Shown here in pieces: positions 1 to 43,626 of a stretch of DNA of 63,318 nt. Source of the DNA: a virus (Duplodnaviria; Caudoviricetes); IMG/VR virus record IMGVR_UViG_3300032227_001118, positions 1 through 63,318 of that record; one strand, written 5' to 3'. A program made the position numbers and the translations under genes. How positions within the stretch are numbered: the stretch's first letter is position 1; every line of letters begins with the position of its first letter. The notes below the pieces were generated by a model. The model saw nothing but the letters and a program-made list of their open reading frames with translations, had not been told where the DNA came from and did not search any database.

Positions 1-190
1 CTCCCTGTGGTCCTTGAGCACCTGCTACTCCCTGTGGTCCTTGAGCACCTGCTACTCCCTGTGGTCCTTGAGCACCTGCTACTCCCTGCGGTCCCTGCGC
101 ACCTGCTACTCCCTGTGGTCCTTGAGCACCGGCTACTCCCTGTGGTCCTTGAGCACCGGCTACTCCCTGCGGTCCCTGCGGTCCTTGTGG
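1..190 (-). repeat. 27-bp tandem coding repeat (GVAGAQGPQ collagen unit)
   Basis: Unit ctccctgtggtccttgagcacctgcta repeated in tandem; similar arrays at ~655-810, ~2140-2320, ~5800-6290. Confidence 0.9.
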
Positions 191-2584
191 ACCAACGGCA
201 CTGACTAATTGCCCATTGGTATAGATATTACCGGCATATAATGCACCACCTATGCCAACTCCGCCGCGTACTTGTAAGGCACCTGTAAGAGTAGATGTTG
301 CGGCTGTGGTTCCTAATATATAAGAATTGGATCCACCAACATACAAACTACCACCTATGCCAACGCCGCCGGCAACTATTAAAGCGCCGGTAATAGTTGA
401 ACTAGCAGCGGTATTATTGGTTGTCTGAATAACATCATCTGTTTTAACCAATGTAGTTGTAACTGTTGTGTATTCAATGGTTAATTTCTGTGCAACAATC
501 TCTCCGCCAACATACAAACTACCACCAATACCAACACCTCCTACGACCTGTAATGCACCTGTGGCAGTACTAGTTGCCACAGTACTATTATTGACTGATA
601 CAGCAGCATATGTTACCGAACTTGTAGTGTATAGATCTTGGTTGGTTCTACTCGGTCCCTGCGGTCCTTGAGCACCTGCTACTCCCTGAGGTCCTTGAGC
701 ACCTGCTACTCCCTGCGGTCCTTGAGCACCTGCGACTCCCTGTGGTCCTTGAGGTCCGGTGACGCCCTGTGGTCCTTGAGCACCTGCTACTCCCTGTGGC
801 CCTTGTGGACCAACAGCACTGACTAATTGCCCATTGGTATAGATATTACCGGCATATAATGCACCACCAATACCAACTCCGCCTGCTACAGTTAAGGCAC
901 CAGTGAGTGTACTAGTAGCAGCAAGTGTAGAAGTAATATTGGTAGTGGTAAATGTACCAGTGTTGGCGGTAATTCTGCTAACCCCAACAATATTGCCTCC
1001 AGCTAGATCAATGTCACCGCCAGTAGCTCCAGTGATAATCAATGTACCACCAACATATAGGTCTTTAGCAACTGATAATCCACCTGCTACCTGTAAAGCA
1101 CCTGTGCCAGTTGATGTAGCATTAGTTGTACCAGAAACAATGACATTGGTAGTGGTAAATGTTGTACCATTGAATGTTAATCCAGTACCAAATGTAGTGA
1201 CTCCTGGACCGCTTTGATAAGGAATTTGATCTTTCAATCCACCAATGATATTATTGGTCTTAACAGCACTGTCAACATAGATGCTGCCGGTATTAGTAAA
1301 TGCCGGAGCCGATCCAGCACCTGCACTGACCAATAACCAACCGGCCGATCCCTGTCCAAGGAAAGCAGTGGTATCGGGGGCACTTTGATATATCAATGCG
1401 CCATTTCCTGCACCGTTGCCTAATAGATTCTTTGCAAATCCAACTTGTAGAGTACTGGTACTAGTAATATAACTACTGGCAATATTACCAACAAATGAAG
1501 AGGCAGTTACAGAACCACCGGCATATAAACTGCCGCCAATACCAACACCTCCTGCTACCTGCAGTGCGCCTGTGATAGTTGATGTTGCATTGGTTGTACT
1601 ATTAATTGATAGATTTTTTGCTGAAATTACACCATTAGTAGTATTATAAGTTAGCGTGGAATCAGCATCGATAGCAGAATAATTACCATTTAAGTTATCT
1701 GCAAGTGCTAGATAATAGGTTGTATTTGGTAATACATTATTAACTAAAATATTGTCGGCATTGGTACTGCTTCCAACTATTCCGGAAATACTACTGGAAT
1801 TGATTGTACCGTCAATGATACCACCAACATATAAATTACCGCCAATGCCAACTCCTCCAGTGACAATCAATGCCCCTGTAGTAGTAGAACTAGCAGCAGT
1901 ATTATTAGTTGTTTGAATAACATCATCGGTTTTGACCAGTGTAGTTGTAACAGTGGTATACTCAATGGTTAATTTTTGTGCAACAATTTCGCCACCAACA
2001 TATAAACTACCACCGATACCAACACCACCTATTACCTGTAAGGCACCTGTAGCAGTACTATTTGCCGCAGTGTTATTACTAACTGATACAGCAGCATATG
2101 TTACTGAACTTGTAGTATATAAATCTTGGTTGGTTCTGCTCGGTCCTTGCGGTCCTTGTGGTCCTGCTACTCCTTGCGGTCCTTGTGGTCCTGCTACTCC
2201 CTGTGGTCCTTGAGCACCTGCTACTCCCTGTGGCCCTTGAGCGCCAGCTACTCCTTGCGGTCCTTGTGGTCCTGCTACTCCCTGCGGTCCCTGCGCGCCG
2301 GCTACTCCTTGTGGCCCGGCCGAACTTGTCCAAACGTAACTACTACCATTCCAACTTAGATATGTACTGGCAGTAGAAGGTGCTGTTACAAATCCAGTTG
2401 TTCCGGTATTGATTTGATATAGAATTTGATTGACAAACCCTCCTGCTATGTTAGTAGCAGTACTGACTATAATACCAGATGTTGGACTAACTCGAGTCCA
2501 AGAATTTGTGGTGGTAGAATATGTATAGGTGATGCCATTTGCTATGGTAATTTGCCCGTTAGTGGCTGGAGTTGGAAAAGACAC
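1..2584 (-). CDS. Collagen-repeat tail fibre/appendage protein, truncated at window edge (absent from ORF track)
   Basis: GTG start at 2584 after AAGGA; translates [32 protein letters not shown]...; same frame still reads GPQG at positions 2-13; contains GPQGVAGAQ collagen blocks and TGALQVxGGVGIGG modules. Confidence 0.85.
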
Positions 2585-2945: not shown

Positions 2946-5900
2946 TTATGAAGAAATACCGTAAAGAGATGCAGAGCCAGCAGCTATTACATAACCCGCA
3001 AAAAGTTTAATAGCAGTTTTAGCATCAGTGTTGTTCTCTAACCCACCTCCGCCCGTTATTGCAATACGACCTTCACCATAACCTAACCCATAATTTTGAT
3101 AATTCACTATTGTGTAGTAACCAGAAGTCATTCCTTCAATATATATTTGACCGCTAATCCCCCATGAAGCACTGTTAACTATTCCGGTATGAAAAAGGTT
3201 TATGTTTGAACTGTTGATTTGATTAGTCGCATATACAGTACCACTCGATATTTTGGCCGAGCTGTAATGATATCCAGTAGTAATATATGTTGGACCAGAT
3301 CCGGTTCCAAAACTTAAAAAGACACTATCTGCATTATTAGCCACAACCAAATTTTCAATTATTATTAAATATTTTTTGTAACCACTCAATCCTGTCCAAG
3401 CCAGAGTGGCACTATTACTTGCAGTCAGGGTGCTGATCAACGTCATTGCACTGCTGGCGGCACTGCCACTGGGTCCACTTGGACCCGTCGGCCCTGCTAC
3501 TGAAGATGCTGCTCCGGCCGGTCCTTGGGGTCCTTGAGCACCTGCTACGCCTTGCGGTCCTTGTGGACCAGTGTTACCAACCACTCCCTGTGGTCCCTGG
3601 GCACCTGCAACGCCTTGTGGTCCTTGAGCACCGGCTACTCCTTGCGGTCCTGCCGGTACCAGTGCTGGCCCATTTATATCTAACCAGACATTGGATCCAC
3701 TACCATTATCTGTGTATCTATAAATGGTATCTGTGCCGCTGTTGTACCAAATATCTCCTACTATAGGATTACCAGGAGGCAGAGTACTGGTTGTATTACG
3801 GACTCCGCCGCCGACAACTGCACCACCAACATGTAAACTACCACCAATACCAACTCCGCCGGCTACCTGTAGTGCTCCGGTACTGGTCGTTGTGGCATTA
3901 GTTGTACCAGAAACAATAATATTGGTAGTGGTAAATGTTGTACCATTAAATGTTAATCCACTATTAAATGTAGTGGCACCTACAGCACTTTGATATGGAA
4001 TTTGGTTAGCTGAACCACCAAGAATATTCTGTGAACTGACTGCAGAGTTAACATACATACTACCGGTGCTGGTAAATGCCGGTGCACCGTTTGTTGTTGC
4101 TTGCAGGAATTGTCCTGTTGTTCCGCTATTAATAAATGCTGTTGTACCAGCCGCACTTTGATAATGAATCTGCCCTTGAGATCCACCTACTATGTTGACC
4201 GAAGTGGTTACCAGGGTCGATGTCGAAGCGGTAGTTACTTCTTTAGTAACTGGGTTGTAATACATTATCCAAGTTGTTGCACTTGTAGTGGCATCGGAAC
4301 GAATCGGTGCAATATATAACCCAGAATTATAAACAGGGAGGTTAGAATTTTGACCACTAATAACAACAGCATTGGCCGGAATTGGTGCTCCAGATCCTGC
4401 AAAAGAACCAATTGCTACCGACCCTTGACCAATCCCGGAGGATCCTGCATTGTGTCCAATACCGATACTATATCCAAAGTTTGTATTTACAGAATTACCG
4501 ATTGCCACTGAGTTTGCAGCGATTCCGGCGACTCCGCTGCCTAATGCAATTTCGGTTGCTGGAGTTCTTAATATAGTAGCAGTGACTATACCACCAACAA
4601 ATAATCCCCCGCCTACTCCAACTCCTCCTACTACTCTTAATGCACCTGTTGTAGTACTGATTACAGCGGTCGTTCCGGTTACTAAAATAGCAGGACTAGT
4701 AACAGCACCATCGGCACTGGCTCCTAATTGACCTTTACCTAATACTAATGTATTTGCAGAAAGATACAAGGTTCTAAACGGTAAACTTGGCGATCCAAGA
4801 TCCTGTGATTCAGCCACCGATGGTAAAATATTACCACCTATATTTAGATTTCCACCGATGCCAACTCCGCCTGCTATAGTTAGCGCCCCAGTTATGGTGT
4901 TGGTAGAATCAGTTGTGCTAGGAATAGATACGTTGGTAGCAGTAAATGTAGTACCATTAAATGTTAACCCACTACTGAATGTTGTAGCACCCGCTCCACT
5001 TTGATATGGAATTTGATCTTTCAATCCACCAATGATATTATTGGCTTTAACAGCACTGTCAACATAGATGCTTCCGGTATTGGTAAATGCCGGAGCCGAT
5101 CCGCCACCTGCACTGACCAATAACCAACCAGCCGATCCCTGCCCAAGGAATGCAGTAGTATCAGGGGCACTTTGATATACCAATGCACCATTACCTGCAC
5201 CATTACCCAGTAAGTTTTTAGCAAATCCAACCTGTTGTGTTGAAGTATTGCCTGCATTTAGCACATTAGCTATAGCGGCATTACCTACGTAGATACTACC
5301 TGTGTTAGTATAAGTAGGAGCAGCAGCACCGGCACTTACCAGTATTTGTCCTGCTGTGCCCGGGCCTGCAAAATTAGTTGTACCGATACCTGTCTGATAA
5401 ACTAATTGACCAGCTGTACCACCAGTAATGTTTGTGGCTGTTGTAATACTACCTGTAATATTAGCTGCACTTAGAGCGCCGCCAACATACAAATTACCAC
5501 CAATACCAACGCCGCCTGTAACTATTAAAGCACCAGTTGTAGTTGAACTGGCAGCAGTAGAATTGGTTGTTTGAATGACATCATCTGTTTTAACCAGTGT
5601 GGTTGTAACAGTAGTGTACTCAATGGTTAATTTTTGTGCAACAATTTCGCCGCCGACATATAAACTACCACCAATACCAACTCCGCCTATTACCTGAAGT
5701 GCGCCAGTGGCAGTACTATTTGCCGCAGTATTATTATTAACTGATACAGCAGCATATGTTACTGAACTTGTAGTGTATAAATCTTGATTGGTTCTACTGG
5801 GCCCCTGTGGTCCCTGTGGTCCGATGTCGCCTTGAGGTCCTTGTGGGCCTGTAACTCCTTGTGGTCCTTGTGGGCCTGTAACTCCTTGTGGTCCTTGTGG

Positions 5901-6434
5901 GCCTGTAACTCCTTGTGGTCCTTGTGGGCCTGTAACTCCTTGTGGTCCTTGTGGGCCTGTAACTCCTTGTGGTCCTTGAGCACCTGCTACTCCTTGAGGT
6001 CCTTGAGCACCTGCTACTCCTTGAGGTCCTTGAGCACCTGCTACTCCTTGAGGTCCTTGTGGTCCAATGTCGCCTTGTGGCCCTTGAGCACCTGCTACTC
6101 CTTGAGGTCCCTGTGGTCCGATGTCGCCTTGTGGTCCTTGAGCACCTGCTACTCCTTGTGGTCCCTGTGGTCCGATGTCGCCTTGTGGTCCATCCGACCC
6201 AACATATCCATTTGCTCCACTTGGACCAGTAGGTCCCTGGGCACCCGCAACTCCCTGTGGTCCTTGAGCACCTGCTGCTCCCTGTGGCCCACCTGCAGTT
6301 ACCAGAACTCCGCCGGCTGTGGTGCCATCACCTACATATATCAATTTAGTATCAGTGGTATAAATTAATTCCCCAACAGCTGGAGTTATACCAGTTCTTG
6401 TTCCCGAAGTTCCTCGTCTTAATTGTAAAGCCAT
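2946..6434 (-). CDS. Tail fibre / receptor-binding protein (Mtd-N-like N-terminus, collagen stalks, YadA-like repeats, distinct C-terminal domain)
   Basis: 1162 aa; MALQLRRGT...[17 protein letters not shown] start; long Gly-X-Y runs; SVAIG repeats; non-repetitive C-terminal ~165 aa. Confidence 0.8.
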
Positions 6435-8043: not shown

Positions 8044-11000
8044 TTAGCAATGATTTTCTACGACACTTATGATACTTTGACGTACTACTTGAATTATCAT
8101 ATTAACAGTTGAGTAATTTGGACTGAATGTTAGTTCAACATTTCCTGCATTATACCCACCGCCAAATGTTCCAAGATCCCCGTTATTGTTTACAATACCA
8201 TACTCGGTTACATAAACATTGGTACCATCGTGGATAATTATCATTTCTTGAGTGTGTATACTGGTACCATCTTTGATTTGAATCAAATACTTGGCACTGG
8301 TATATCTATCTTTATCCCAACTATCGATGATTTGTGTCCAAAGATTACCAGTAAGACCATCATAGGTACCGCCACTTTGCATGCTGTTGACAATGAATAC
8401 ACCGTCAATTGGCTTGTTATGTGGGTTTTGACCACCAGTATCGCCGCCATCGTTCATACCGGCGTATAGTACCTTACCTACTGAAACATTTCCTAAGGCC
8501 TTAATACCACCACGCACTCCTAATGATTGAGCAGTATCGGTTAGATCCTTACCATAGTAGCTTAGGTCAGTGTCGTCGGTACTGGTAATAGTCAACGAGG
8601 TAGCAGTAAATGTTCCGGTAATGCTGACATTGTTAAGATTAGCATCGCCGCTGGCTGTAACGTTGGCAAAATTACTACTTGTGCTGGACAGTACCTTTCC
8701 ACCTAAATAAATGTCGTTAGCAACATAAATGCTGGTGTTAAATGTAGCTGTTGTTCCAACATACAAGTCCTTCTCTATAGTTGCTCCGCCTGCTGTCTTA
8801 AAGGACGGAACAATGGTAGAAGTATTGGCCAGTGTAGGATTGTCTCCTGTAATATTGATATTTTCTGTATTTACAGTAACAAATGTACCTGTGCTACCAG
8901 TGATCTGGTCAACACCGTCCAGGCTGTTGCCCTGGACATACAGTGTACCTTGAACATACAAGTCTGCATTAACATAAGCATCTTGATCAACATATAGTCC
9001 ACCAGCAATACCAACACCACCTAGAACCTGTAGAGCACCGGATGCTGTTGTGTTAGTTGAACTGGCAGCAGTACTGTTAATAACAACACTATTAATTGTT
9101 AATGTGCTATTAAATGTTGAGGTACGAGTTAGTTCTTTGGTAGCTGCATTGTAAATTACCATAGTTGTTGCTGTGTTATCATCACGCAATGAGTCAACAT
9201 AGAATCTACCTGTAGCATCATAGACTTTGGTGCTGTTAGGTAGTGTTAATGCACCATCAGTTTCAAAGTTCCACTCTTTGTTGTTATTGTCAGTTTTGAT
9301 CTTAACCTTTGCTTCAGCATCGAGTATTAAATCTCTACGACCGGCGCCTACACCGTTTTCTTCACGAATATTGGAACGATCCTTAAACCAAATTGTACTG
9401 GTGGCATTGGTCATCGTTAGATGAGTTCCGATACCTATCGAGTCTCCAACCATAATACCACCATTGGGTATATGTAAGGCTGGATTGGCATCGTTGTAAT
9501 CGTTACCGCTGTCAATGTATACTTCTTTCTTGGAGAAGATACCACCGTTGGTTACTGATAACGCACCACCTGCGGATGTTCCACCATCGGATCCAGTTAG
9601 AGAAATATTAAGGGCACCAGTAAAGTCACCACCTGTCATAGTGAGGTTACCACCTGTACCGCTGACTTCGATACTACCACCAACTGTTAGTTTTTCGGTA
9701 CTGCTGTCAAAGGTTAGAGAACTGTCGTCAACTAAGTTTCCATCGGTATCGCTGAATACAACACCGCCAGTAGTAGCCAAGTTGTCTGGGCGAACATACG
9801 GTGCTTGTAGATAACCGCTGCCACTTAATACAGCATTGGTAAGGGTGTTTAATAAAAATGTAGCACCGATAACTTCCAATGAAGCACCAGCCTCAGCAGC
9901 CTTAACATAGATTTCACTATCGTGGTTCAACTGCGAAATCCCAGTAACTCCGCCAGCAGTACTACTGTATAGTTCAATATTTTGTCCAGCAGGTACAGAA
10001 ATGGAGTTAAGATTGCCATCAATGGTAATATTGTTTACTTTTAGTGCCTTATCAGTATCGTTATAAGTGAACAAGCCTGTGTCAAAAGTTGTTGTACCTG
10101 TGTTAGATTGGAACGGGATATCGTATTGTGCGCCACCAGCAATATTGGTTGCTGTTGTAGCCGCACCAACCGATGTAGCACCAGCACTGGCCCAAGTAGC
10201 AGTACTACCAGCACTTACCCAGGTTAAAACTTGATTATCTCCTGTTCCAGCTGGTAGGAATGCTGTTACGCCGTCGGCAGTTTGAATTGGAATCTGACCT
10301 GCACCACCACCATTTAGATTATCAGCTTGTTTTACTGTTCCAAAGATTGTACCTGTTACATTTAGATCAGCATCAATGTAGCTGTTGCCAGCAACACTAA
10401 ATCCACCTGCTAGATCCAATGCGTTGGTATCAGAAGTGCTAGTGCTATCAGCGGTATCTTTACCAAGGATTGAACCAATTTCCATTGTGGCATAGGTAGC
10501 AGCAGCAACGGCTGCATTGGTATTACCAGCAGCATTTGTCTTTACAATCATATGTCCGGTACTATCACGTCCAATAAACATCTGATTGTCAGCCGATGTA
10601 GCAGTGTTGTAATAGTGTAGAGCAATACCACGGTTTAGACCATCGTCGACTGATAATACAGCAGAGTTAGGACCTGTACCTAATTCAATAACTGGATCGC
10701 TGATGTTGGTAACTGTGCTGTCTACAATGGTTTGAACACCTTGAACAGTTAGTTTACCCGCAATGACCACATCCTGACCAACTTTTAGATCTTTGGCAAT
10801 GTGAGCACCACCTTCTGTGTAAAAGCTGTTGCTGGCAGCAATAGTAAGATCGCTGCTTGTATCGTTGATCTTTACTGTGCCATCTGTTTCTACATTACCA
10901 TTGCTGGCTGTAACTGTAAAATTATCGTTAACAGTTAGTGTACCTGTGGAGTTGAATGTTCCATTAACGCCCATATTGCCATCGGCATAAACATTACCAT

Positions 11001-12737: not shown

Positions 12738-14843
12738 TTATATTGCCGATGTAAACTGTATCCAAAAAGTACTGGTTCCATCTCTGATAAATTGTAATTC
12801 GACACCAACATCCGGGTTAATCCAGAAATCACCTACCTTGGGTCTGTCCGGAGCTGTAGTTGATAAAGTTACTTTAGGACTGTATAGCAAATAATTTTCT
12901 TCAGGATTACCATCCACACTGTATATACTACCGGGTACATTTAACACATTGGTACCAGTGACAAAATAACTACTGGTATTTGTATCAGTGGTCACATAAG
13001 TCAACGCACTATCGCTGTCGATCGGACTATAGTCGCCTATAATTTCTGTCAGTCCTAGATAATACATCTGTAACGGAACAACATTATTGACAAAAACATT
13101 ATCACTATTGGTAGATGTATTGGACAATCCAGATGATAATGCATTGACATCAGCCCAGGTTGCTGTAGTACCATCGCTGACCAGCACAGTATTGGTGCTG
13201 CCAATTGGGATGAAATCTGTTTTTCCAGTAGCAGTTTGATATGGAATACCGCCTATTTCTCCGCCCGCTATATTTGTAGCAGTGGTGATAGTACCTGTAA
13301 TCAAGTATCTTACATTCATTCCATTGTAGAATGTGGCCATACCGGTGACCATTAAGTCTCCAGTAATACCTGTTCCGCCAAGCACAGTTAGCGCACCATA
13401 CGGAGTTAAACTGTTTATCTTACCGTCACTGACATATGTACTGTATCCGGTTCCATCGACTGGTATTGTTAATGCTTGATCGTAATAGATACTGAAAGTT
13501 GTAGTACCTAAATAACTAGCCCAGAAAATTTGATCGTTTAATTCTGTAGTTCCTACTATTTCTGTTAGTACAATTTGTGTTCCTGTACCAATTTCTCGGC
13601 TACTATCAATATGAACCACTACAGGATTAGTTTTATCTATGCTTAATATATCTGTTAGATATATAGTAGCACTTACTTCGGTTCCTAACCCAAGTCCAGT
13701 ATTGCTATTAAGCTGCATATATCCATCGCCATCATAGTATAATACACTACCTATGTTAACTTGATTGTCTAACCCATCGACTAAATTGTCGCCACCAATA
13801 CTGATGTTGGCGGTGCCGCGAGTTAAATTATTACCAACCTCGTGTCCTAATAATATATTGTAACTACCTGTGGTTAAATTAGCAGCAGTTCTGTCGCCAA
13901 GGAACAGGTTTTGTCTACCATTAATAACATTGCGTCCGGCATCGGTTCCAATAGCAATATTGTCATCCCAAACTGTATTAAAATATACAGTTCCGCTGCT
14001 TATATAACTGGAAAAATTGGTACTCGATACTGCATTACTTAGATTAATGTCCGAATATAAGGCAATTGTTGATGTACTTGGGACCTTGACATAAAAATTA
14101 CTTTCGTTAAGTTCAGTTGTGCCAATAATATGATCTAAGGTAATTAATGTGCCCGTGCTTAATCCGTGATCCGGGGCAGTAACTACTACAACAGGTCCAC
14201 TAGTTGTAATGTTAGTAATAGTTGCTGCTATTATTAAATGATATATTCCAAGATTTTTAAGAGCACTGTCACCAATAGCAATTGAATTATTAATCTGTGT
14301 ACCTGAATTAAGAGCATGGCGACCTATGGCAATACTCATATAACTTGTAGAAAGTCCGGTTAACGCATCATAACCAATAACAACACTTCCCTGTCCGGAA
14401 AATTCATTTTCTATTTGCGGACTAGCAACACCTTGTATAACAATGTTGTTAAATCCTTGCCATCCTTGCCCAATTGTTAGTCCATTAACATGTATATCTT
14501 TTTCTGCCCATAGACTATCACTAATCCCAATGCCGCCTTTGACAATTAGAGCCCCTGTGTTGGTACTGGTACTGGCTGTTCCACCAGCAACAACCACTAC
14601 TCCAGTACCAGTTCCAATCAATTGTATATCTTGGTCAGGAATATTACTGAATACTGTGCCTAAACTAAACTCTAAATTACCCAAACTGGATCTATATGTG
14701 GTACGTAGTAGGTTATCTGTAACCAATGTGTAGCCGGTACTGGTTGTCGGTGATTCTGGTAATTGGGGTTGAGCTCCCTTGAGGTCAAGGAATTCGCCGC
14801 TACCGCCCCGTCTTAGAGTTGATTTACTTAGTAATGATGGCAT
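12738..14843 (-). CDS. Fibre protein with YadA-like head repeats and two FCCH-like small beta domains
   Basis: 701 aa; SIAIG/NIAIG repeats; two I.....P.VV......L.TG..I.L..I.GTTELN units; C-terminal PDRPKVGDFWIN. Confidence 0.65.
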   Translation of the reverse strand: MPSLLSKSTLRRGGSGEFLDLKGAQPQLPESPTTSTGYTLVTDNLLRTTYRSSLGNLEFSLGTVFSNIPDQDIQLIGTGTGVVVVAGGTASTSTNTGALIVKGGIGISDSLWAEKDIHVNGLTIGQGWQGFNNIVIQGVASPQIENEFSGQGSVVIGYDALTGLSTSYMSIAIGRHALNSGTQINNSIAIGDSALKNLGIYHLIIAATITNITTSGPVVVVTAPDHGLSTGTLITLDHIIGTTELNESNFYVKVPSTSTIALYSDINLSNAVSSTNFSSYISSGTVYFNTVWDDNIAIGTDAGRNVINGRQNLFLGDRTAANLTTGSYNILLGHEVGNNLTRGTANISIGGDNLVDGLDNQVNIGSVLYYDGDGYMQLNSNTGLGLGTEVSATIYLTDILSIDKTNPVVVHIDSSREIGTGTQIVLTEIVGTTELNDQIFWASYLGTTTFSIYYDQALTIPVDGTGYSTYVSDGKINSLTPYGALTVLGGTGITGDLMVTGMATFYNGMNVRYLITGTITTATNIAGGEIGGIPYQTATGKTDFIPIGSTNTVLVSDGTTATWADVNALSSGLSNTSTNSDNVFVNNVVPLQMYYLGLTEIIGDYSPIDSDSALTYVTTDTNTSSYFVTGTNVLNVPGSIYSVDGNPEENYLLYSPKVTLSTTAPDRPKVGDFWINPDVGVELQFIRDGTSTFWIQFTSAI

Positions 14844-15256: not shown

Positions 15257-18200
15257 TTATGTAATTGCCAATATGAACGGAGTCATATTAGCGTATAAAC
15301 TTTGTACAAATGTTCTTCCACTTAGAACACCGGTGGCTTGACTAATGACTAATCCTGGCCCTATGCGGAAATCACCATTTTGATCAGTACTGGTAAAAAA
15401 TACCTTACCACCATCTAATTGTACGGTTTCCTTGGATTGAGCTGGATCTTTAATACCTCGTTGCGGTAATGCTCCGTAATTTGTACCAGCTCCGACGTAT
15501 TCAAACAAGTATCCACTAGCACTCATATAACTACGTTGGTAGAAGTTAACCGTAGCACCATCCGGAAATAGATCAGTTCTAGAAACAGCTTCGCCTAATT
15601 CTACTACGTGATGAGTTCCTTCCCTTGACCAATAGCTTAATCCGGCCATTACACTATTATAGGTTCCGCCTGTTTCTAAATCATATATCAATCTTCGTAA
15701 TATTATCTTGGTATCTCTCTTGCATTTAGTATCAATATAATCTATTTGAGACTGTGTCAATCCGTTGAATACATCTCTTGTTAACGAATTGTCGTGTACA
15801 AATGCTGTTACTTCTTCTGCCAAGAAATTTAAATTTTCTTCAATTAATGTGATAGCACTACCGGCACCTAGTACAACTGTACCTTCTTTCTTAATGGCTA
15901 TTGGCGGAACAACTGCCTTAGCTGCATTAAGATCGACTGCTCCTATTATGCCAGTTATATATCCAAATCTTTCATTGATAAACGGTGTAGCACTGGAGCC
16001 GCCTTTAACTAGTAACTGAATAGACTGAGTAGAAGTATTTCCAACTGTAGCAGTTACCGATTGATTATCAATTACTTTATTAACTACAGATTGTAAATGA
16101 ATAATAGAAAGAATATGTTGATCTACTTGATCAGTTATTGGTCCTTGATACTTATCGCGATCGCTTGGCGGTACTAAAATATTCTTATTTGGTTCGTAAG
16201 GAGGAGTTGCAACTGTGCTGGTTATTACTGAGTAATAGCTCTTACCACAGAAATACAATGTGAAATAATTAGGGTTAGTAGGATCTCCGCCACCATGGGT
16301 CAATGCTTGATTAAATGTGATTGCGTTATAGTCAACATTAGTAACCACAGTTCCTGTAGCTGCATACCACTTTAAATAATCTGGATTTGGTATAGAGTTA
16401 CCAGAAGCATCCTTAATTTCATTACCAAAGTTATCTACCTTGTTTGGAAACTTATCATATTCAGAACCGTATTGATCTCTGATATAAACAGTATTTCCAA
16501 CAGCAACATTATTAGTATCAACATTTCTTAAAACGATTGTAGATGTCGTTAATGTACCGGTACTAGGTTGCGCATTTAAAAATCCCGGAAGACTTTGTTC
16601 GTTTAAATGCCCATCAGGAGGTATAACCTCCATCACTAAACTAATATGAGGTCTGTCCGATATATCCGGTGTGAATACTTCAACAAAGCCTTTATTGGGC
16701 CAATATCCGTTAGGGTAGTACTCATCTAATCCGTCTGGGCCTGGACTAAATGGATAGGCTCTGTCTTTAGGGTTGAATACAGTACCGCTAAATGCCCTTG
16801 ACCCATATCCTTTAGCAACCAAACAAAGATCCCCAAAGTTGCTATTACTATTGGTAACAGATGCAATACCACCGTTTTCCACCAGCACCGCGATGGAACA
16901 GAAAATTGTAAACACCGAAACCAACTGTGCATATCCGTCATTGGTAATATGAATACCTTTTCCGCCTTGATTGACCTGTGTGAATGCATCATAAACAAAA
17001 GATTGAATTGGACTAATTTTGCTAATTACAGCACCGTCGACTAAACTACCACCCATTGCTCCAATAGGATCAACTTTTCTTTGATTCCATGTGGTAGAAT
17101 CACCGGTGTATTGTAAACTTAATGCATCAACTTGAAAATCCTGTTTAGGAAATATATCGGTATTGCCAAAATATAATGTAGCATTATTTCCAAATCCCAC
17201 GGTAGATATGTCAAGACCTATAGTATAAACACCGTTGGTTCCAGTTACAGATGTTACCCTAGGAGCTAATTTGACATCTGATCCGTTAATACCGGTTAAG
17301 GCAAATACTCCTCCGCCTGCATAAATTGGAGGGGCAGCACTGGGTCCTTTTTCTATGATATCTGTAATAATTTTAAAGTTACGCTTAACTGCTTCTTGCG
17401 GCATGTAATCGCCGCCATACTGGAAGAAAGTATTAATTATTTGTGTAGATACTGTTCCAGTTTGCGGAGTCACAGGTCTATTGGCAATTATTTGCAATGC
17501 TATATCTTTGGCATAGTTTATAGCATTGGTAGTTGTTGTTATTTGAGTAGCAACATAGTTAAATCCTTGATTCCAATAACTTAAACCTGCTTCTATACTT
17601 TTTTGATTTCCACCTAATAATATATCTTGACTAACTGCATCAACAATTAAACCAGTATCTCTATAACACGATTCTTCGTTATAGTTGAAAGAATTGGGAT
17701 TATATAGTTGATCCAATCTAGCAACAACTTCTTCTTTGATAAATTCTTTATTGGCTAATAATAATTTAAAAGAATTTAAACCAGTTGAGGTAACAGAACT
17801 GGCAGTACTAATAGGAGTTAATTCCCATGTTACTGTACTAGTTCCGTTTGAAATAATACTGGTAACCGTAGAAATAGCACGATTAATTAAACTAACTTCA
17901 GCGTTTGAACCCGCATCCGGTAATGTTACCTGCTTGACTCTGGTTTGATATGTACTGGTATTTTGATTCTTAACAATATAATTTGCCAATTCGGCAATAT
18001 AATCAAAAGATGCTATGGTCGCTGCTCTTTCACTGTCTCTAATATTTCTAGTGGAATTATATCTGTAATAGTTTAAACCAGATTGAACACTTTGTCTATT
18101 ACCACCATGTAATAGATCAAACCCGATACTGTCAACAATGTAACCAACATCCCGTTTGCATTTATCGACATCATAGGCAGTAAAGGTAGGATGTACTGTA

Positions 18201-20800
18201 TTAATATATGCTATAATCTCGTCGGCAAAATAACCATTTTCTTTATTGGCCTTGAGTAAAGCCACAGCATTACGAACACCTAATAAATTACTCGGGGGTC
18301 CATTACTGACAATTTTGTCAGACCATCCCAGGTTATTTCCCTTGATAATTTCTATAACTGTATTAAAATTTTTATTAATTATTTTGACTTCGTCGATGCT
18401 GGCAGGTTCTAAACTGGTATCTTGAATTCCTGTACCATATCGAAGAATCAAGTCGTCAGTTGGAGTTATATTTTGTATTATTTTTACAGCTAAATCTCTT
18501 AGATATACAATAGCAGCAGTAGTGGTTGTAATTTCGTTTGGAATAGTGCCTGTATAACTGCTTTGAGTATAGTATTGTAATCCAGCAAATGTACTTTGAC
18601 TATGATTAGGTGTAGGATATAGCATGTCTAATGCTACACTATCTAAAATTAACCCTGTGTCTCTTTTGCATTTAATTTTATTAAATTTGAGATTTTTAGG
18701 TGGAATTGCTAAATCATTATTAATATAATTAATTACATTTTCTTGAATAAATGTTCTGTTGGCCTGCATTAATATTTCAGCACTGACAAAAGCAGCATCG
18801 GGCCCTGTACTTCGGTAAACTGCAGGAGAATTAGCAGGGTTGGCAATAGTGGCTGTAACAATACCATACAAAGACCTAATTGACGAAGTGCTAATTTCAC
18901 CACCTGTTAGAACCCAGTTAATAACTTGATTAGCAGGTACAGTTGGATAGGTGTTTGTACAAGGAATATTTTTAACAATTTCGAGACTGCGATCTCTTAG
19001 ATATTCAATTGCTGCTGTTGTTTGAGTTTCTTGGCCGGCAATGAGACTGACTACACCGTCATAATAAGCCAACCCACTTTCTACAGATTTTTCATTGCCG
19101 CCAAATGCAGCATCATATGCAGTGTTTTCTACGAGAATACCTACATCTCTATAACATTTTTCTCTGCTGTATTCAAACCCAGGAAATCGATCATCAATAT
19201 AAGCAACAACCTGACCTTGTAGGAATGGTTTATTGGCCAGCAACAATGTGCGAGCATTAAAGAATCCAGGATTTTGTTGCCCAGCATTTACAGCCATACC
19301 CCTGGTAATTGTTCCGGTGCTGACACTCACTGTTAATGTTGTTGTATTGATAACCCAAGTTCCTGTTCCTACAGCAGCAGGTACCTGCACAGTTTGGTTA
19401 GGTATAAACATTGTACCATCTCTTAACCAAGGGCCACTTTGATTTGTACAGTTTTGAATATAAGGACTGTGGAATAAATTAATTCTATCTTCACCTTCTA
19501 ACGGTGGAAATGCTGTGGCATATGCTCCCCTATTGAATCCAGGAGCATAATCGCCCTCTAATAGTCCACTACGACCATTTAAGAACTGCATGCCTGTTAA
19601 ATAGCATCCAGAATTCACATGGAATAAGTCTTGTGTTTTGTTAATGGGTTCAATACTGCAAGTTCTTAAGTCTGCCCCTACGATGCTGGTATAGGGTTTT
19701 AGTTGTAGTGGATTATCTTCTAAATAAAGGCCGGGCGCTACACGAATTTGTGTACCAGATTGATAATAGGGACTATTGATTGCTCCACCAATGGTACGGC
19801 AAGCACGGCTGGTATCCATGGCACGCCCGTCATTGGTATCATCCCCGTCCGTGGTAACATACAGTATATTAGTTACTACAGGAGCAGTTCCTATGGGATT
19901 ATTTCCCCTTACTCGCAAATCACCAAAAATATCAACCTGACCGGCACCCAATGCCAATGTACTGGTTCTTGAACTAGAATCTAAATAACGAGCATAGATG
20001 GTTTCTAAATAGGAATCTGTAAAATCATTAATGGAATAAACTTCTCCCCCGAGTAGAATATTTTCTGTAATTGCCGCTCCACCTTTTACTACCAATGGAG
20101 CAGTATCAAGATCTCTTGCAGGTTCTCTAGATACAACTTCTACTATTTCACTTTGAAGTATTCCACGGAATGGATTATAGGATAGTCCTTCAGGATTGTC
20201 AAGTGCTACTTGGCCTTCCTTGTCAATATACAAGTAAGAATTACCACTGTTTTCAGTAAATGTTAAGTAATAAGGTTTATCATCATTGATTGGTTGAATT
20301 AATAACTGTGTAGATGTAGTTGCTGTCAAGGCTTCTGATATTCTACCATAGATAAATCCGCCTACTGCTAGATCTTTTTCTATACCAACACCGCCAGAAA
20401 AGAACGCACCGGCTTTTTGACGTTGTTCCGTAGTGCTATATTCCGTTTGATCGGGCCAATTAGGTCTAGGGTCATCAAGCCCGTCGGGATTAAGAATGTT
20501 TCCTACGTTTTTTTCAGATGGGTTATCACCTCCTACTTCACCGACAATAACTCGTCCGCCCTTAACAATAACATTACCGTTTTCAAGGGTAACATCACCG
20601 TCTTTGACTGTGACGTCACCTTTTTCAACTGAGACGTCACCTTCTTTAACGTTAACATCACCCTTATTAACGTTAACATCACCTTCGGTTATATCGACTT
20701 TCCCGCCCGTCTGTGGCGATATGTTTATATCGCCGTCGGGGGTGCTAATAGTTTGATCACCAGAAGATTTTACGTTTTTACTACCGGTAGTGCGGGCCAT
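15257..20800 (-). CDS. Large virion appendage protein: beta-helix scaffold with inserted phycobiliprotein/globin-like CxRD repeats
   Basis: 1847 aa; N-terminal 7-aa GDVxVxx repeats; YVTTDGDDTNDG...RTI...IRVAPGLYLE..P....YTSIVGADLR beta-helix start; five helical repeats with (K/S)CxRD. Confidence 0.7.
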   Translation of the reverse strand: MARTTGSKNVKSSGDQTISTPDGDINISPQTGGKVDITEGDVNVNKGDVNVKEGDVSVEKGDVTVKDGDVTLENGNVIVKGGRVIVGEVGGDNPSEKNVGNILNPDGLDDPRPNWPDQTEYSTTEQRQKAGAFFSGGVGIEKDLAVGGFIYGRISEALTATTSTQLLIQPINDDKPYYLTFTENSGNSYLYIDKEGQVALDNPEGLSYNPFRGILQSEIVEVVSREPARDLDTAPLVVKGGAAITENILLGGEVYSINDFTDSYLETIYARYLDSSSRTSTLALGAGQVDIFGDLRVRGNNPIGTAPVVTNILYVTTDGDDTNDGRAMDTSRACRTIGGAINSPYYQSGTQIRVAPGLYLEDNPLQLKPYTSIVGADLRTCSIEPINKTQDLFHVNSGCYLTGMQFLNGRSGLLEGDYAPGFNRGAYATAFPPLEGEDRINLFHSPYIQNCTNQSGPWLRDGTMFIPNQTVQVPAAVGTGTWVINTTTLTVSVSTGTITRGMAVNAGQQNPGFFNARTLLLANKPFLQGQVVAYIDDRFPGFEYSREKCYRDVGILVENTAYDAAFGGNEKSVESGLAYYDGVVSLIAGQETQTTAAIEYLRDRSLEIVKNIPCTNTYPTVPANQVINWVLTGGEISTSSIRSLYGIVTATIANPANSPAVYRSTGPDAAFVSAEILMQANRTFIQENVINYINNDLAIPPKNLKFNKIKCKRDTGLILDSVALDMLYPTPNHSQSTFAGLQYYTQSSYTGTIPNEITTTTAAIVYLRDLAVKIIQNITPTDDLILRYGTGIQDTSLEPASIDEVKIINKNFNTVIEIIKGNNLGWSDKIVSNGPPSNLLGVRNAVALLKANKENGYFADEIIAYINTVHPTFTAYDVDKCKRDVGYIVDSIGFDLLHGGNRQSVQSGLNYYRYNSTRNIRDSERAATIASFDYIAELANYIVKNQNTSTYQTRVKQVTLPDAGSNAEVSLINRAISTVTSIISNGTSTVTWELTPISTASSVTSTGLNSFKLLLANKEFIKEEVVARLDQLYNPNSFNYNEESCYRDTGLIVDAVSQDILLGGNQKSIEAGLSYWNQGFNYVATQITTTTNAINYAKDIALQIIANRPVTPQTGTVSTQIINTFFQYGGDYMPQEAVKRNFKIITDIIEKGPSAAPPIYAGGGVFALTGINGSDVKLAPRVTSVTGTNGVYTIGLDISTVGFGNNATLYFGNTDIFPKQDFQVDALSLQYTGDSTTWNQRKVDPIGAMGGSLVDGAVISKISPIQSFVYDAFTQVNQGGKGIHITNDGYAQLVSVFTIFCSIAVLVENGGIASVTNSNSNFGDLCLVAKGYGSRAFSGTVFNPKDRAYPFSPGPDGLDEYYPNGYWPNKGFVEVFTPDISDRPHISLVMEVIPPDGHLNEQSLPGFLNAQPSTGTLTTSTIVLRNVDTNNVAVGNTVYIRDQYGSEYDKFPNKVDNFGNEIKDASGNSIPNPDYLKWYAATGTVVTNVDYNAITFNQALTHGGGDPTNPNYFTLYFCGKSYYSVITSTVATPPYEPNKNILVPPSDRDKYQGPITDQVDQHILSIIHLQSVVNKVIDNQSVTATVGNTSTQSIQLLVKGGSSATPFINERFGYITGIIGAVDLNAAKAVVPPIAIKKEGTVVLGAGSAITLIEENLNFLAEEVTAFVHDNSLTRDVFNGLTQSQIDYIDTKCKRDTKIILRRLIYDLETGGTYNSVMAGLSYWSREGTHHVVELGEAVSRTDLFPDGATVNFYQRSYMSASGYLFEYVGAGTNYGALPQRGIKDPAQSKETVQLDGGKVFFTSTDQNGDFRIGPGLVISQATGVLSGRTFVQSLYANMTPFILAIT
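17330..19265 (-). repeat. Four tandem ~165-aa helical protein repeats with CxRD motif
   Basis: Cys codons at 19154-56, 18668-70, 18158-60, 17666-68 (residues 549, 711, 881, 1045; spacing 162, 170, 164 aa); fifth copy at 15722-24 (residue 1693). Confidence 0.85.
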
Positions 20801-32625: not shown

Positions 32626-33462
32626 TTAACCGTTAAATTGCCAATCTAAAATTTTATTACAGGATTTTACTATTGTTATTATGTCTTTTTGATTATTATA
32701 TTGTTTGTTATTAATGGTTTTTAATTTGCCTAAGTTGATATATCCAACAGCCAGTTTAGGATCTTCTAATTTATAGGGCCATGATAATTTGCTAGTATTA
32801 TAAAAGTTTTTAAATATTTCGGATAAGTTTGGTATAGTAAAAAATCTTAATGTATGATATGATGAATATTGGTACTGTGGTATTATTTGATCTTTTGGAC
32901 AATCTATATCATTAGATAAAAACAATTCTATAGGGTGTCTACCTACATGGCAATATTGTAATGTTAAATCTCCAAAATTAACATATGGTTTAAAAAATTT
33001 AAAATCTTCATCATCTATTTTTATTTTATGGGAATTATCACAACATAATAGTAGGTATATATTTTCTTTTCTAGATTTATTTAAAATTTGTTGCAACCCG
33101 TGAATCAAATCATTAAATCTTGTAAACTGATTTCTTTTTATAGGATCTAATTCTTCTTTTTCTAATTCAGGAAAATGTATGTGTAAACAATTTAAACTTT
33201 TAATAGGATCATTTATTTGCCACTTATTTTCTATTTTTACAGGCAACCAACAGTTTAATTCATCAATTACTTCATTAAAGTCATTTACTAAATCATTATA
33301 TGTTGATAATATACCTCTCCAAGGATTTAAACTTTTTCTAAGATCTATAGGTGATGTTTCTTTAGATAGGTTTACCCAATTTTTAGTAGGAGCATCGTCA
33401 TTTAGTTCATACGAAAATATAAACTGTTCTAATCCATTAGAAAGTATAATTTCATAGTTCAT
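32626..33462 (-). CDS. AT-rich hypothetical protein
   Basis: Probable ATG at 33462 (MNYEIILSNG...) overlapping the end of the GIY-YIG gene; composition far more AT-rich than neighbours; no family recognised. Confidence 0.7.
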   Translation of the reverse strand: MNYEIILSNGLEQFIFSYELNDDAPTKNWVNLSKETSPIDLRKSLNPWRGILSTYNDLVNDFNEVIDELNCWLPVKIENKWQINDPIKSLNCLHIHFPELEKEELDPIKRNQFTRFNDLIHGLQQILNKSRKENIYLLLCCDNSHKIKIDDEDFKFFKPYVNFGDLTLQYCHVGRHPIELFLSNDIDCPKDQIIPQYQYSSYHTLRFFTIPNLSEIFKNFYNTSKLSWPYKLEDPKLAVGYINLGKLKTINNKQYNNQKDIITIVKSCNKILDWQFNG

Positions 33463-33889
33463 TAAATTTTCCGTTAATATGTTTGCCATGTATGCGACAG
33501 TTTATAATGCCATTGTAATAATCATCTGATTCTAATACTCGACGTTCAAACTGTTCGCGTGCCTCAACGTAGCTGGTTTCTGCCTTGCTGCCACAATAAT
33601 GAATTATTTCTCTGGTGAAATTTTCTTTGCCTAATTTTTCTATATCTTCATGGAGGTTAGGACTACTGCCCCAATATTCTTTCCAATCACTGTCTATTTT
33701 GCCTTTAATTCGCTTTCGCTTTTTTGTGCCGTTTTTTAATTTAATTGTTTTATATGTGATTTTACTGAACTTGGCTAGTTTTTTGCCTATGTATTTTCTG
33801 CCTGTAGGAATACATGTGATAATATACACATATCCAACACACTCCTCGGGCAGTTCTTCAATGACTGTACCTTGATAGGTCCAAGTCAT
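33452..33889 (-). CDS. GIY-YIG endonuclease (Seg/EndoII-like, single domain)
   Basis: GYVYIIT....GRKYIGKK, YWGSS, F.REII, catalytic-type E (YVE) and YYN motifs. Confidence 0.85.
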   Translation of the reverse strand: MTWTYQGTVIEELPEECVGYVYIITCIPTGRKYIGKKLAKFSKITYKTIKLKNGTKKRKRIKGKIDSDWKEYWGSSPNLHEDIEKLGKENFTREIIHYCGSKAETSYVEAREQFERRVLESDDYYNGIINCRIHGKHINGKFNEL

Positions 33890-41586: not shown

Positions 41587-41590
41587 TATT

Positions 41591-43132
41591 ATGGATTTCG
41601 TAGACACTAGAACTGGATCAAAATTGGGCTCGCCGGGCCCATTTATTGGTATAATAACAAATAATTTAGACCCTACTTTTATGGGCAGATTAGAGGTGGG
41701 ATTAATCAAGGGCTTATATCCTGATACCACTGACCAATCAAACACATACATTGTAAAATATCTCAGCCCGTTCTATGGGATAACTTCGGACAAATATCAA
41801 GGTGCTAATAGTGATAAGTTCGACGATGTTCAAAAAAGTTATGGCATGTGGATGGTTCCTCCTGATATAGGAACCAGAGTGTTGGTTATATTCATCGATG
41901 GTGATCCTAATCAAGGTTACTGGATTGGGTGTGTTATGGACCAATTTCAAAATCACATGGTCCCGGGCATTGCCGCTAGTGACACAGTATTTGTATCTCC
42001 GGAGCAAAAAAGACAATACACAGATGGCCCACTACCTGTAGGAGAATTTCTTAAATCTGCACAGATTGAAAATGCCGGCCCTAATGTTAATAAATTTAAG
42101 AAACCACTACATCACCCATTTGCCAAACGACTGCGAGATCAAGGCCTACTAGCAGATGACATTAGGGGAGTAACATCCAGTTCGGCAAGACGTGAAGCAC
42201 CAAGTAAGGTGTTTGGTATTAGTACACCGGGTCCATTAGATCCCGATGGTAAAAAAGGCAATGTTGGCTACAAGGGAGCCAGTAAATTTCAACCTGTTAG
42301 TCGGCTTGGGGGTACAACCTTTGTCATGGACGACGGTGATAACAATGGTGACAACGAATTGGTAAGAATTCGCACCAGAACCGGCCATCAAATTTTGTTA
42401 CATAACACTCATGATTTAATTTACATTGCCAATAGCCGAGGCACAGCTTGGATAGAACTAACCAGCGACGGCAAGATTGACATTTATTCACGAGATTCGA
42501 TCAGTATACATTCCGAGGCTGATTTTAATTTCAGGGCCGATAGGGACATTAATTTAGAAGCAGGCAGGAATATTAATATATATTCTGCGGAAAGTTTTAG
42601 CATTAATGCAGATAAGGATTATACGGTTATAGCGGGCAAGGATGGTAAAATTCAATTCAAAGGTAATTTAGATCAATCGGTAACCGGCGGTATGAAATTA
42701 AAAGTAGATGCTGGGTTTGACCTCAAGGTAACTGGGGATGTTAAACAAACAGCCTCCGGCAATTTTAATATTGCGGCCGGAGCAAATAATAATTTTTCAG
42801 CCAATGGTAATACCAATATTTCTACACAAGGACAACATCTAGAGTCTGCTAAGGCAATTCACATGAACGGTCCTAAAGCAGCTTCGGCCACTCCTGCTGA
42901 TGCGGCCTTGGTTCCTGATCCATTATCCAAGTTTGTTCTTCCCAACACCAAATATGTAGAAGATAAATGGACCAATGAAGATAGATATAAAACAGATGAT
43001 TTACAAAGTATTATGCAGCGTGTTCCGGTACACGAACCGTGGATTCAACATGAAAACAATACAACACGAGCAAGTTTTGCTACGGACAAGACCGATGTGG
43101 TTGCCGGAACAGCAAATAAAAAAGCTGAATAA
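41591..43132 (+). CDS. gp5: Baseplate central spike (gp5/VgrG-like; OB-fold + beta-helix)
   Basis: DP..MGRL.V, SYGMWMVPPDIG..V.V.F..GD....YWIG, RTRTGHQI, beta-helix repeats, IHMNG; no lysozyme domain seen. Confidence 0.8.
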   Translation: MDFVDTRTGSKLGSPGPFIGIITNNLDPTFMGRLEVGLIKGLYPDTTDQSNTYIVKYLSPFYGITSDKYQGANSDKFDDVQKSYGMWMVPPDIGTRVLVIFIDGDPNQGYWIGCVMDQFQNHMVPGIAASDTVFVSPEQKRQYTDGPLPVGEFLKSAQIENAGPNVNKFKKPLHHPFAKRLRDQGLLADDIRGVTSSSARREAPSKVFGISTPGPLDPDGKKGNVGYKGASKFQPVSRLGGTTFVMDDGDNNGDNELVRIRTRTGHQILLHNTHDLIYIANSRGTAWIELTSDGKIDIYSRDSISIHSEADFNFRADRDINLEAGRNINIYSAESFSINADKDYTVIAGKDGKIQFKGNLDQSVTGGMKLKVDAGFDLKVTGDVKQTASGNFNIAAGANNNFSANGNTNISTQGQHLESAKAIHMNGPKAASATPADAALVPDPLSKFVLPNTKYVEDKWTNEDRYKTDDLQSIMQRVPVHEPWIQHENNTTRASFATDKTDVVAGTANKKAE

Positions 43133-43135
43133 ATA
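43128..43135 (+). promoter_or_regulatory. Late promoter AATAAATA
   Basis: Overlaps the gp5 stop codon, 5 nt before the gp25 ATG. Confidence 0.5.
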
Positions 43136-43140
43136 TTATT

Positions 43141-43578: not shown

Positions 43579-43598
43579 TATATACAGTTTATTGCACC

Positions 43599-43606
43599 AA
43601 TAAATA
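43599..43606 (+). promoter_or_regulatory. Late promoter AATAAATA
   Basis: NATAAATA ~20 nt upstream of the gp6 ATG. Confidence 0.55.
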
Positions 43607-43626
43607 CGATATCTACTGTTAAAATC

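Follow-up and report, generated by a model that had tools for sequence, protein, structure and literature searches.

The window analysed here is the whole of IMG/VR virus record IMGVR_UViG_3300032227_001118, a stretch of 63,318 bases with a completeness rating of 18%, whose gene content is that of the structural block of a T4-like myovirus. Our subject is its tail-fibre gene P0001, which encodes a protein of 1847 amino acids (aa) with five copies of a repeat that resembles the phycobiliproteins (PBPs), proteins usually regarded as the antenna proteins of cyanobacteria and algae. An earlier note, made from the sequence alone, had described five helical repeats in this protein with cysteines at residues 549, 711, 881, 1045 and 1693, and both the reading frame and the C-x-R-D motifs, of which there are exactly five with Cys at those residues, agree with that description; the peptides it quoted are found in the translation, and its tandem period of 162-170 aa matches the spacings of the four tandem copies (162, 170 and 164 aa). 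The coordinates it gave, 15600-19265, take in the repeats but slightly clip the first and last copies. The features of the gene, all on the minus strand, are listed from its start to its end, with scores from the repeat profile (A1) described below.

15257-20800, minus strand: tail-fibre/virion protein gene P0001, 1847 aa, a stop-free frame that holds all of the repeats
19421-19903, minus strand: conserved fibre core segment before the array, aa ~300-460, where tblastn matches to cyanophage tail-fibre proteins begin at aa 301-309
18911-19411, minus strand: PBP-like repeat 1, aa ~464-630, 174.5 bits, Cys549 codon at 19154-19156
18425-18934, minus strand: PBP-like repeat 2, aa ~623-792, 165.0 bits, Cys711 codon at 18668-18670
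17903-18427, minus strand: PBP-like repeat 3, aa ~792-966, 183.5 bits, Cys881 codon at 18158-18160; included in the two-repeat structural model
17414-17914, minus strand: PBP-like repeat 4, aa ~963-1129, 187.1 bits, Cys1045 codon at 17666-17668
16766-17203, minus strand: conserved fibre core segment after the tandem array, aa ~1200-1345, matched by phrog_29288 (aa 1210-1340) and phrog_5342 (aa 1267-1338)
16010-16156, minus strand: fragment corresponding to the C-terminal third of a repeat (profile positions 128-176), 17.2 bits, E 2e-5
15488-16039, minus strand: PBP-like repeat 5, aa ~1588-1771, apart from the tandem four, 122.9 bits, Cys1693 codon at 15722-15724
15263-15559, minus strand: conserved C-terminal tail-fibre domain, aa 1748-1846, to which phrog_17885 and phrog_3442 align with their own C-termini and which tblastn matches follow to aa 1846-1847

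P0001 matches the tail-fibre families phrog_5342 (6e-76) and phrog_17885 (1e-64) as well as phrog_4527 and others, and its gene sits between the major capsid gene and tail-spike-like genes in a block that also holds protease, portal and baseplate genes. By family match and gene location it is a phage tail-fibre or virion structural protein, which supports the virion appendage that had been proposed, although the term 'polyprotein' used for it is a misnomer for what is one multidomain chain with no sign of cleavage. A search of the 63-kb window with the repeat profile found nothing beyond the five copies and the one fragment. Repeat-free cyanophage proteins, such as that of P-SSM2, match P0001 only at aa ~230-460, at aa ~1200-1345 and at the C-terminus, so that the tandem array of four repeats looks like an insertion between two segments of a conserved fibre core, in which we infer a beta-helix.

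For the comparison with PBPs, 402 repeats (from Cys-85 to Cys+84) were excised from 74 related viral loci, and 120 were left at 60% identity. Alignment A1 holds 98 repeats together with the five of the window (103 rows), three loci of shorter period being excluded, and alignment A3 represents the PBPs with 30 alpha and 20 beta subunits from genuine cyanobacterial cpcB/cpcA genes. The Pfam family PF00502 (Phycobilisome protein) matches whole P0001 with 26.3 bits (cut-off 22.2, E 8.2e-6), a match to it is precomputed for about half of the listed homologues, and 16 of the 103 single repeats match it at E<=0.01, every other family being matched by at most one repeat. Against 177,635 distinct PDB sequences A1 gave 43 matches at E<=1, all 43 of them to phycocyanin, phycoerythrin or phycoerythrocyanin (best E 1.3e-5), with K-C-x-R-D of the repeat falling on K-C84-x-R-D of phycocyanin alpha; it took the repeat profile to reveal this, a phmmer search with whole P0001 giving only marginal matches to PDB sequences (E >= 0.1). 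Alignment of A1 with A3 by hhalign (probability 92.8%, E 4.1e-7) spans 56 columns, beginning in helix B and ending at the GG turn that follows helix E, in a register that sets the motif's Cys, Arg and Asp on Cys84, Arg86 and Asp87 and GGN on GGT.

The predicted structure leads to the same family. Repeat 4, the copy in which the PF00502 match lies (aa 1031-1108), was modelled with AlphaFold2 (AF2) using A1, and the model is all helical with a mean predicted local distance difference test (pLDDT) of 89.1 and a predicted template-modelling score (pTM) of 0.86. When it was searched against 48,161 representative chains, the top nine matches were all members of the PBP family (Z 7.8-9.8): phycoerythrin beta (Z 9.8, 130 residues, 3.4 A), an allophycocyanin-type chain (Z 9.3), the bilin-binding domain of ApcE (Z 9.3), a far-red allophycocyanin (Z 9.2), a photocobilin (Z 8.8), three whole ApcE chains and phycoerythrin alpha (Z 7.8). 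Haem globin sensors come next, from Z 7.4. Nearly all of the ~50 top rows returned by Foldseek are PBPs as well, with probabilities of up to 1.0.

These four methods concur in family and in register, which supports homology with the PBPs, and at the level of profiles and predicted fold they establish the repeat as a ~165-aa six-helix globin-type domain on a divergent branch of that family. That the likeness is convergent or a statistical accident, the repeat being an unrelated helical bundle, is barely credible: single repeats of the window do stay under the Pfam cut-off (only repeat 4 matches, with 18.9-19 bits against 22.2), and the Foldseek matches have weak E values (~0.06) and TM-scores of ~0.5, but the four methods are independent, in the alignment register Cys, Arg, Asp and the GG turn coincide exactly with those of PBPs, and in every search it was PBPs and nothing else that were matched. 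The tandem phycobiliprotein-like globin domains of the earlier note are thereby upheld by PF00502, the PDB profile search, hhalign and the AF2 model with its structure search; the equivalence of its CxRD cysteine with Cys82/84 also holds, hidden Markov model and hhalign both placing it on Cys84, and the fold check it proposed for a single repeat with AlphaFold and Foldseek gave a globin-type fold with PBPs on top. Assignment as phycobiliproteins proper was rejected. The repeats are tandem modules in an 1847-aa chain rather than free alpha and beta subunits of ~160-175 aa that form (alpha-beta)3 rings, and for that reason we have filed them as a new branch in a new setting: the repeat family is a new branch of the PBP superfamily.

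Because the first alignment had been selected by its motif, conservation was counted in a motif-free census in which A1 was run on 120 homologues, out of at least 1322 repeat-region homologues scored in one collection, yielding ~1,314 complete repeats. The Cys is kept in 1281 of 1314 repeats (97.5%), the Arg in 1296 of 1314 (98.6%) and the Asp in 1308 of 1315 (99.5%); an Asp at Cys+14 is present in all 1316 of 1316 and a Tyr at Cys+30 in 1314 of 1322, and the complete C-R-D-D-Y signature occurs in 1274 of 1314. Lys-Cys-x-Arg-Asp is, across the aligned sequences, near-invariant at the position where Cys82/84, Arg and Asp provide the anchor in phycocyanin, and the suspicion that the Cys might not be conserved among homologues can be laid aside. 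According to one account (PMC8717448), the residues that hold the bilin in the PBP pocket are the Cys, the Asp three residues on and a Tyr ~35 residues on. The 33 losses of Cys comprise 13 replacements by Ser and 18 by Phe, Tyr or Trp, the remainder being Val or Arg, and the Arg is lost in 11 of the 33 Cys-less repeats compared with 7 of the 1281 that bear Cys (Fisher p 1e-14, uncorrected for relatedness). Bulky replacements coupled to loss of the Arg are the pattern expected of a degenerating ligand pocket.

The ligand need not be a bilin, and the Cys/Asp/Asp/Tyr site might instead accommodate a cyclic tetrapyrrole (haem, for instance), a metal ion or some ligand on the host surface, or the Cys might form inter-chain disulfides that lock a trimer. 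Phage fibres often contain metal sites and disulfides, one Cys, two Asp and one Tyr could together hold a metal, and the ligands of the globin superfamily are varied, globin-coupled sensors and RsbR being next in the structure search (Z 6-7.4). We nonetheless regard this as quite unlikely, since the sequence signal is specific to PBPs with no haem globin among the 43 PDB matches, no conserved His was found in the repeat census, and the K-C-x-R-D block equals the bilin-binding block of phycocyanin residue by residue.

The repeat is widely distributed. A search of 1.84 billion proteins returned 1569 clusters (50% identity) with matches to it at E<=1e-3; the best 150 matches are all phage-type giants, and the number of copies per protein reaches 38 among the matches listed. 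Homologues of the window gene have up to 15 C-x-R-D copies with the same period, and these together with the 1569 clusters indicate that the motif is not due to chance. There is also a short form of the repeat with a period of 108-115 aa, which retains C-x-R-D and runs to as many as 38 copies (L046, L067, L072, L078; P0130, P0134), and which may be a minimal B-E-F-G helical core. Among cultured phages the repeat region matches 51 of 50,697 records, and all 51 are phages of Synechococcus or Prochlorococcus. The matched genes are annotated as tail fibre, short tail fibre, gp7 baseplate wedge or virion structural protein, and the profile finds K-C-x-R-D copies in p091 and the 'short tail fibre' of S-PM2, in S-CAM1, S-CAM4, ACG-2014i and S-H9-1, and in gp7 of P-HM2; a megablast search of the same 50,697 records with the fibre gene gave no match. 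The predicted viral structures that match the repeat model are those of cyanophage tail and structural proteins, none of them named as PBP-like, and we found no prior description of PBP-like fibre repeats in a full-text literature search, although subscription journals, largely beyond its reach, and supplements could yet contain one. The coding sequence of the S-PM2 'short tail fiber protein' (L173; NC_006820.1 165928-177267) is an open frame of 3792 aa that is overlaid by ~16 tRNA features, probably through a coordinate error in the tRNA annotation.

The main rival to a pigment-binding role is that a captured PBP gene now supplies a rigid, duplicable and pigment-free bead that sets the length of the fibre, much as Ig-like, FN3 and collagen modules do; the conserved Cys, Arg, Asp, Asp(+14) and Tyr(+30) would then serve folding or hold neighbouring domains or chains in contact. 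Copy number is free (2-38 per protein) and the period falls to 108-115 aa, both typical of length-setting modules, and the neighbouring fibre genes use collagen repeats in a like manner. An AF2 model of two successive repeats (pLDDT 80, pTM 0.56) has six helices per period with long coils between the bundles and looks like beads on a string; moreover, Asp(+14) has no place in the PBP pocket yet ranks among the best-conserved residues, and no lyase was found in the jumbo phages discussed below. We hold this explanation to be possible, if doubtful. A lone Cys kept in so large a share of the repeats at ~20-30% pairwise identity is unusual for a purely structural residue of an extracellular protein, and its replacement by bulky aromatics rather than by Ala or Val, coupled to loss of the Arg, also counts against a spacer.

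A further line of evidence comes from the genes for bilin attachment and synthesis. In the cyanophages S-CAM4, ACG-2014i, S-CAM1 and S-PM2 an annotated gene for a CpeT-like lyase lies 0.3-1.5 kb upstream of the giant repeat gene on the same strand. S-H9-1 has an unannotated CpeT match (L169; NC_070961.1 32008-32511, minus strand; 144 bits, a 181-aa open frame) upstream of its repeat gene, and with Syn1 and S-RSM4, in which the coordinates show cpeT upstream of the repeat gene, seven genomes in all have the arrangement. When 22 complete myovirus genomes were scored for repeats (A1, E<=1e-3) and for CpeT (PF06206), 16 had both, 2 had repeats only, none had CpeT only and 4 (P-SSM2, S-SM2, S-SSM7 and Mosig) had neither (one-sided Fisher p 0.002, which, as with the p-value for a smaller panel below, overstates the evidence because the genomes are related to one another). 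In S-CAM1, S-PM2 and S-H9-1 cpeT is separated from the repeat gene by a 2OG-Fe(II) oxygenase gene. P-SSM4 has a CpeT-like open frame of 148 aa (NC_006884.2 16642-17064) above the Pfam cut-off, contrary to the text of a 2010 review in which cpeT was not found in that phage.

The capsid protein of the window's phage is 68-71% identical to those of jumbo phages of 350-470 kb (among them GAP32, CBB, Serratia phage BF and Sinorhizobium phage Phosso) and 90% identical to that of G001, a complete viral record of 322,512 bases with terminal repeats in which the capsid gene adjoins the orthologous fibre gene just as it does in the window. Its closest gp23-type capsid proteins, and a genome size above 200 kb as judged through the complete relative G001, place the phage with the T4-like jumbo phages of the GAP32/Rak2 type, and since psbA is present in none of the five jumbo records (0/5) the host is probably not a typical picocyanobacterium.

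The earlier note had reported no bilin-synthesis enzymes in the window, and in fact this fragment holds no haem oxygenase (HO), bilin reductase or lyase. Its suggestion that the rest of the genome be searched for such genes was rewarded in a complete close relative: G001 encodes a ferredoxin-dependent bilin reductase (FDBR, 60 bits) and an HO (60 bits) in adjacent genes within a block of the order Hsp20-ClpS-HO-FDBR, whose surroundings also include a collagen-like protein, but it has no CpeT/CpeS lyase. The same block is present in fragment G003; neither HO nor FDBR was found in three other long jumbo fragments. The positions are as follows.

L084 (G001:24000-42000), 8227-10224: HO-FDBR block of G001
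L085 (G003:23000-41000), 8070-10036: HO-FDBR block of G003

The HO and FDBR frames overlap slightly in the G001/G003 block, and in G003 a DnaK-type Hsp70 gene adjoins it. In a reverse search, 5 of the 28 longest further viral fragments bearing FDBR also hold repeats. The nearest cultured relative of the jumbo FDBR (40% identity) is that of Pelagibacter phage Mosig, where it lies beside an HO gene; the Mosig pair (L177, record 39650-44735) is immediately preceded by four 2OG-Fe(II) oxygenase genes and one ferrochelatase-like gene and immediately followed by the neck genes. Large freshwater phages in which ho1 adjoins pcyX-like genes are described in a preprint (bioRxiv 10.1101/2020.02.13.942896). 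The purpose of phage bilin genes was termed 'a mystery' in 2010, and that of hemO and FDBR in phages of heterotrophs was 'still enigmatic' in 2024 (PMC11480375); the latter paper offers phytochromes or bilin biosynthesis-associated globins (BBAGs) as possible partners for phage bilins, and the word 'tail' is never used in it. If the repeats were pigment-free beads, that would not explain why the cultured phages with them are all cyanophages, why cpeT occurs together with and next to them, or why the jumbo relatives have HO and FDBR.

The explanation that we prefer, and to which we would give an even chance, is that P0001 is the tail fibre of an uncultured T4-like jumbo myovirus and that the repeats, set between and after its core segments, bind a bilin. 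For the binding itself, the conserved residues, the way in which they are lost, the range of hosts and the joint occurrence with bilin genes bring the balance to about even. Each domain would be loaded in the infected cell with a linear tetrapyrrole linked by a thioether to the conserved Cys; jumbo phages would obtain the bilin through their own HO and FDBR, and cyanophages from the host or through phage ho1/pebS/pcyA. Attachment could be autocatalytic, as in the ApcE domain, or, in cyanophages, aided by the phage CpeT-like lyase, and the finished virion would bear pigment arrays on its fibres. The pigment might, speculatively, lend the domains stability, act as a quencher of light or reactive oxygen, or serve as a light sensor in adsorption.

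Several observations weigh against bilin-loaded fibres. To our knowledge no experiment shows pigment on any virion, and coloured preparations of cyanophages are not known to have been reported. The profile likeness to PBPs is limited to the helix B-E half of the domain, the C-terminal half aligning structurally only, and Z scores below ~13, as ours are, can occur between unrelated helical bundles; as the hhalign alignment stops after helix E, the identity of Tyr (Cys+30) with the PBP pocket Tyr is putative only. The fully conserved Asp(+14) is not a PBP feature, so that the site could bind something else. The association with CpeT is imperfect, in that S-ShM2 and P-SSM7 have repeats without it; it is found in 0 of 23 divergent repeat-bearing viral fragments; and the panels comprise few genomes, which are not phylogenetically independent, the 13 that were chosen blind giving counts of 9, 2, 0 and 2 in the same order (p 0.08). 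Neither CpeT nor CpeS lyase is present in the window, in the complete G001, or in G003, G055 and G059, and T-type lyases are described, in a review (PMC10452541), as serving Cys-153 and not Cys-82. Within G001 itself the FDBR gene (~32 kb) and the fibre gene (~189-204 kb) are ~160 kb apart, and FDBR was found in 0 of 49 other fibre-bearing viral fragments (6-51% complete), although at that distance a negative in such fragments, or in the three long ones above, says little. Finally, Mosig has HO and FDBR and no repeat, so the fibre repeat cannot be the sole reason that phages carry these genes.

The adsorption of cyanophages offers a possible connection with light. Light-dependent adsorption of cyanomyoviruses has been known for decades and is independent of host photosynthesis, and S-PM2 adsorbs in the light only. 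P-HM1 and P-HM2 show no adsorption in the dark, while P-SSM2 adsorbs in the dark, though less well, and P-SSP7 both adsorbs and replicates in the dark (Liu et al. 2019). By profile, P-HM1 and P-HM2 have 4 repeat matches each and S-PM2 has 10, as opposed to none in P-SSM2 and P-SSP7; repeats are thus found in 3 of 3 light-only adsorbers and 0 of 2 dark adsorbers, in a set of which P-HM1 and P-HM2 are near-identical members and outside which P-GSP1 and AS-1 fall. All three light-only adsorbers carry cpeT as well as repeats. That repeat presence tracks light-dependent adsorption, as it appears to do from these genomes, is a lead and not a result. An extension of bilin binding would make the fibre arrays bilin-charged photoreceptors of the virion, in which absorbed light alters the fibres and permits attachment, explaining both light-dependent adsorption and the phage cpeT/ho1/pebS/pcyA/pcyX genes; we consider this unlikely.

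The remaining features of the window are those of the structural block and its neighbours.

Window: gp23-type capsid protein, prohead protease and gp20-type portal
Window: gp5-, gp25- and gp6-like baseplate parts
Window: late sigma factor and SbcCD
2-2584, minus strand: fibre-like gene with collagen triple-helix repeats
2946-6434, minus strand: fibre-like gene with collagen triple-helix repeats
59623-60453, plus strand: fibre-like gene with collagen triple-helix repeats
47031-59621, plus strand: giant virion protein of 4196 aa, after the gp6-like baseplate gene in a gp7-like position, with a match to phrog_10938

No Pfam domain and no PBP-like repeat was found in the 4196-aa giant virion protein, in contrast to gp7 of P-HM2. 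The collagen-repeat fibre of 1162 aa has an Mtd_N (major tropism determinant N-terminal) domain at its start, and a tail-spike-like protein of 701 aa (12738-14843, minus strand) significantly matches PF16190 (45.8 bits), the FCCH domain of the ubiquitin-activating enzyme E1, a domain that is odd for a phage. A gene for a SegE-type GIY-YIG homing endonuclease (33452-33889, minus strand) lies between the structural block and the SbcCD genes.

The repeats constitute a large and unrecognised branch of the PBPs, resident in phage tail-fibre and baseplate proteins, in which the pigment-binding residues are almost never lost, and the array is a candidate bilin acceptor on virions. It offers a candidate answer as to the purpose of the bilin-synthesis and lyase genes of phages, including phages that infect Prochlorococcus or heterotrophs, hosts to which such genes are of no use, and as to how some cyanophages adsorb only in the light without host photosynthesis. 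Should virions carry bilins, a phage particle would for the first time have a pigment cofactor among its parts, and auxiliary metabolic genes in ocean viromes would be read anew; should they not, the family would still be a striking recycling of a host antenna protein as a building block of fibres.

Among known systems, the alpha and beta subunits of phycocyanin and phycoerythrin (PF00502) share with the phage domains the globin-type fold, the similarity over helices B-E, the K-C-x-R-D block and the GG turn after helix E. They differ in that the phage domains come as 2-38 tandem copies in virion proteins of 1,000-6,000 aa and not as free subunits in alpha/beta operons, have six helices with the X-Y dimerisation hairpin not evident and a C-terminal half that is unalignable by sequence, and possess the extra invariant Asp(+14), with no sign of ring or rod assembly and a bilin that is putative. 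Collagen, Ig-like and FN3 modules of fibres are likewise tandem and variable in number, collagen repeats being present in three neighbouring fibre genes of the window, but they have neither invariant residues of a cofactor type nor a link to pigment genes. Photocobilins and photoglobins (PDB 8j2y; PMC8717448) are PBP-related globins that serve in sensing and not in light harvesting; they act in signalling in the cytoplasm, fused to B12 or output domains, and occur in neither tandem arrays nor a virion setting.

The BBAGs, PBP paralogues of heterotrophic bacteria recognised no earlier than 2023 and found in FDBR-encoding genomes according to Rockwell et al. 2023 (PMC10151467), resemble the phage domains in lying outside photosynthetic antennae with an FDBR in the genome. 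They are, however, small cellular proteins encoded beside pre-PcyA genes, as distinct from tandem virion modules. Membership of the BBAGs was considered for the phage repeats and rejected: the FDBR gene of G001 is far from the fibre gene and has ClpS, Hsp20 and a collagen-like protein as its neighbours. A parallel in architecture is ApcE, the core-membrane linker of the phycobilisome, in which a PBP-type domain forms part of a larger multidomain chain and attaches its bilin without a separate lyase, the bilin Cys being at a different position. Its bilin-binding domain (PDB 4xxi) aligns with the repeat model over 96 aa at 2.5 A; unlike the phage fibre, ApcE has one such domain only and works inside the cell, in the antenna core, but lyase-free attachment of its kind is what the lyase-free jumbo phages would need.

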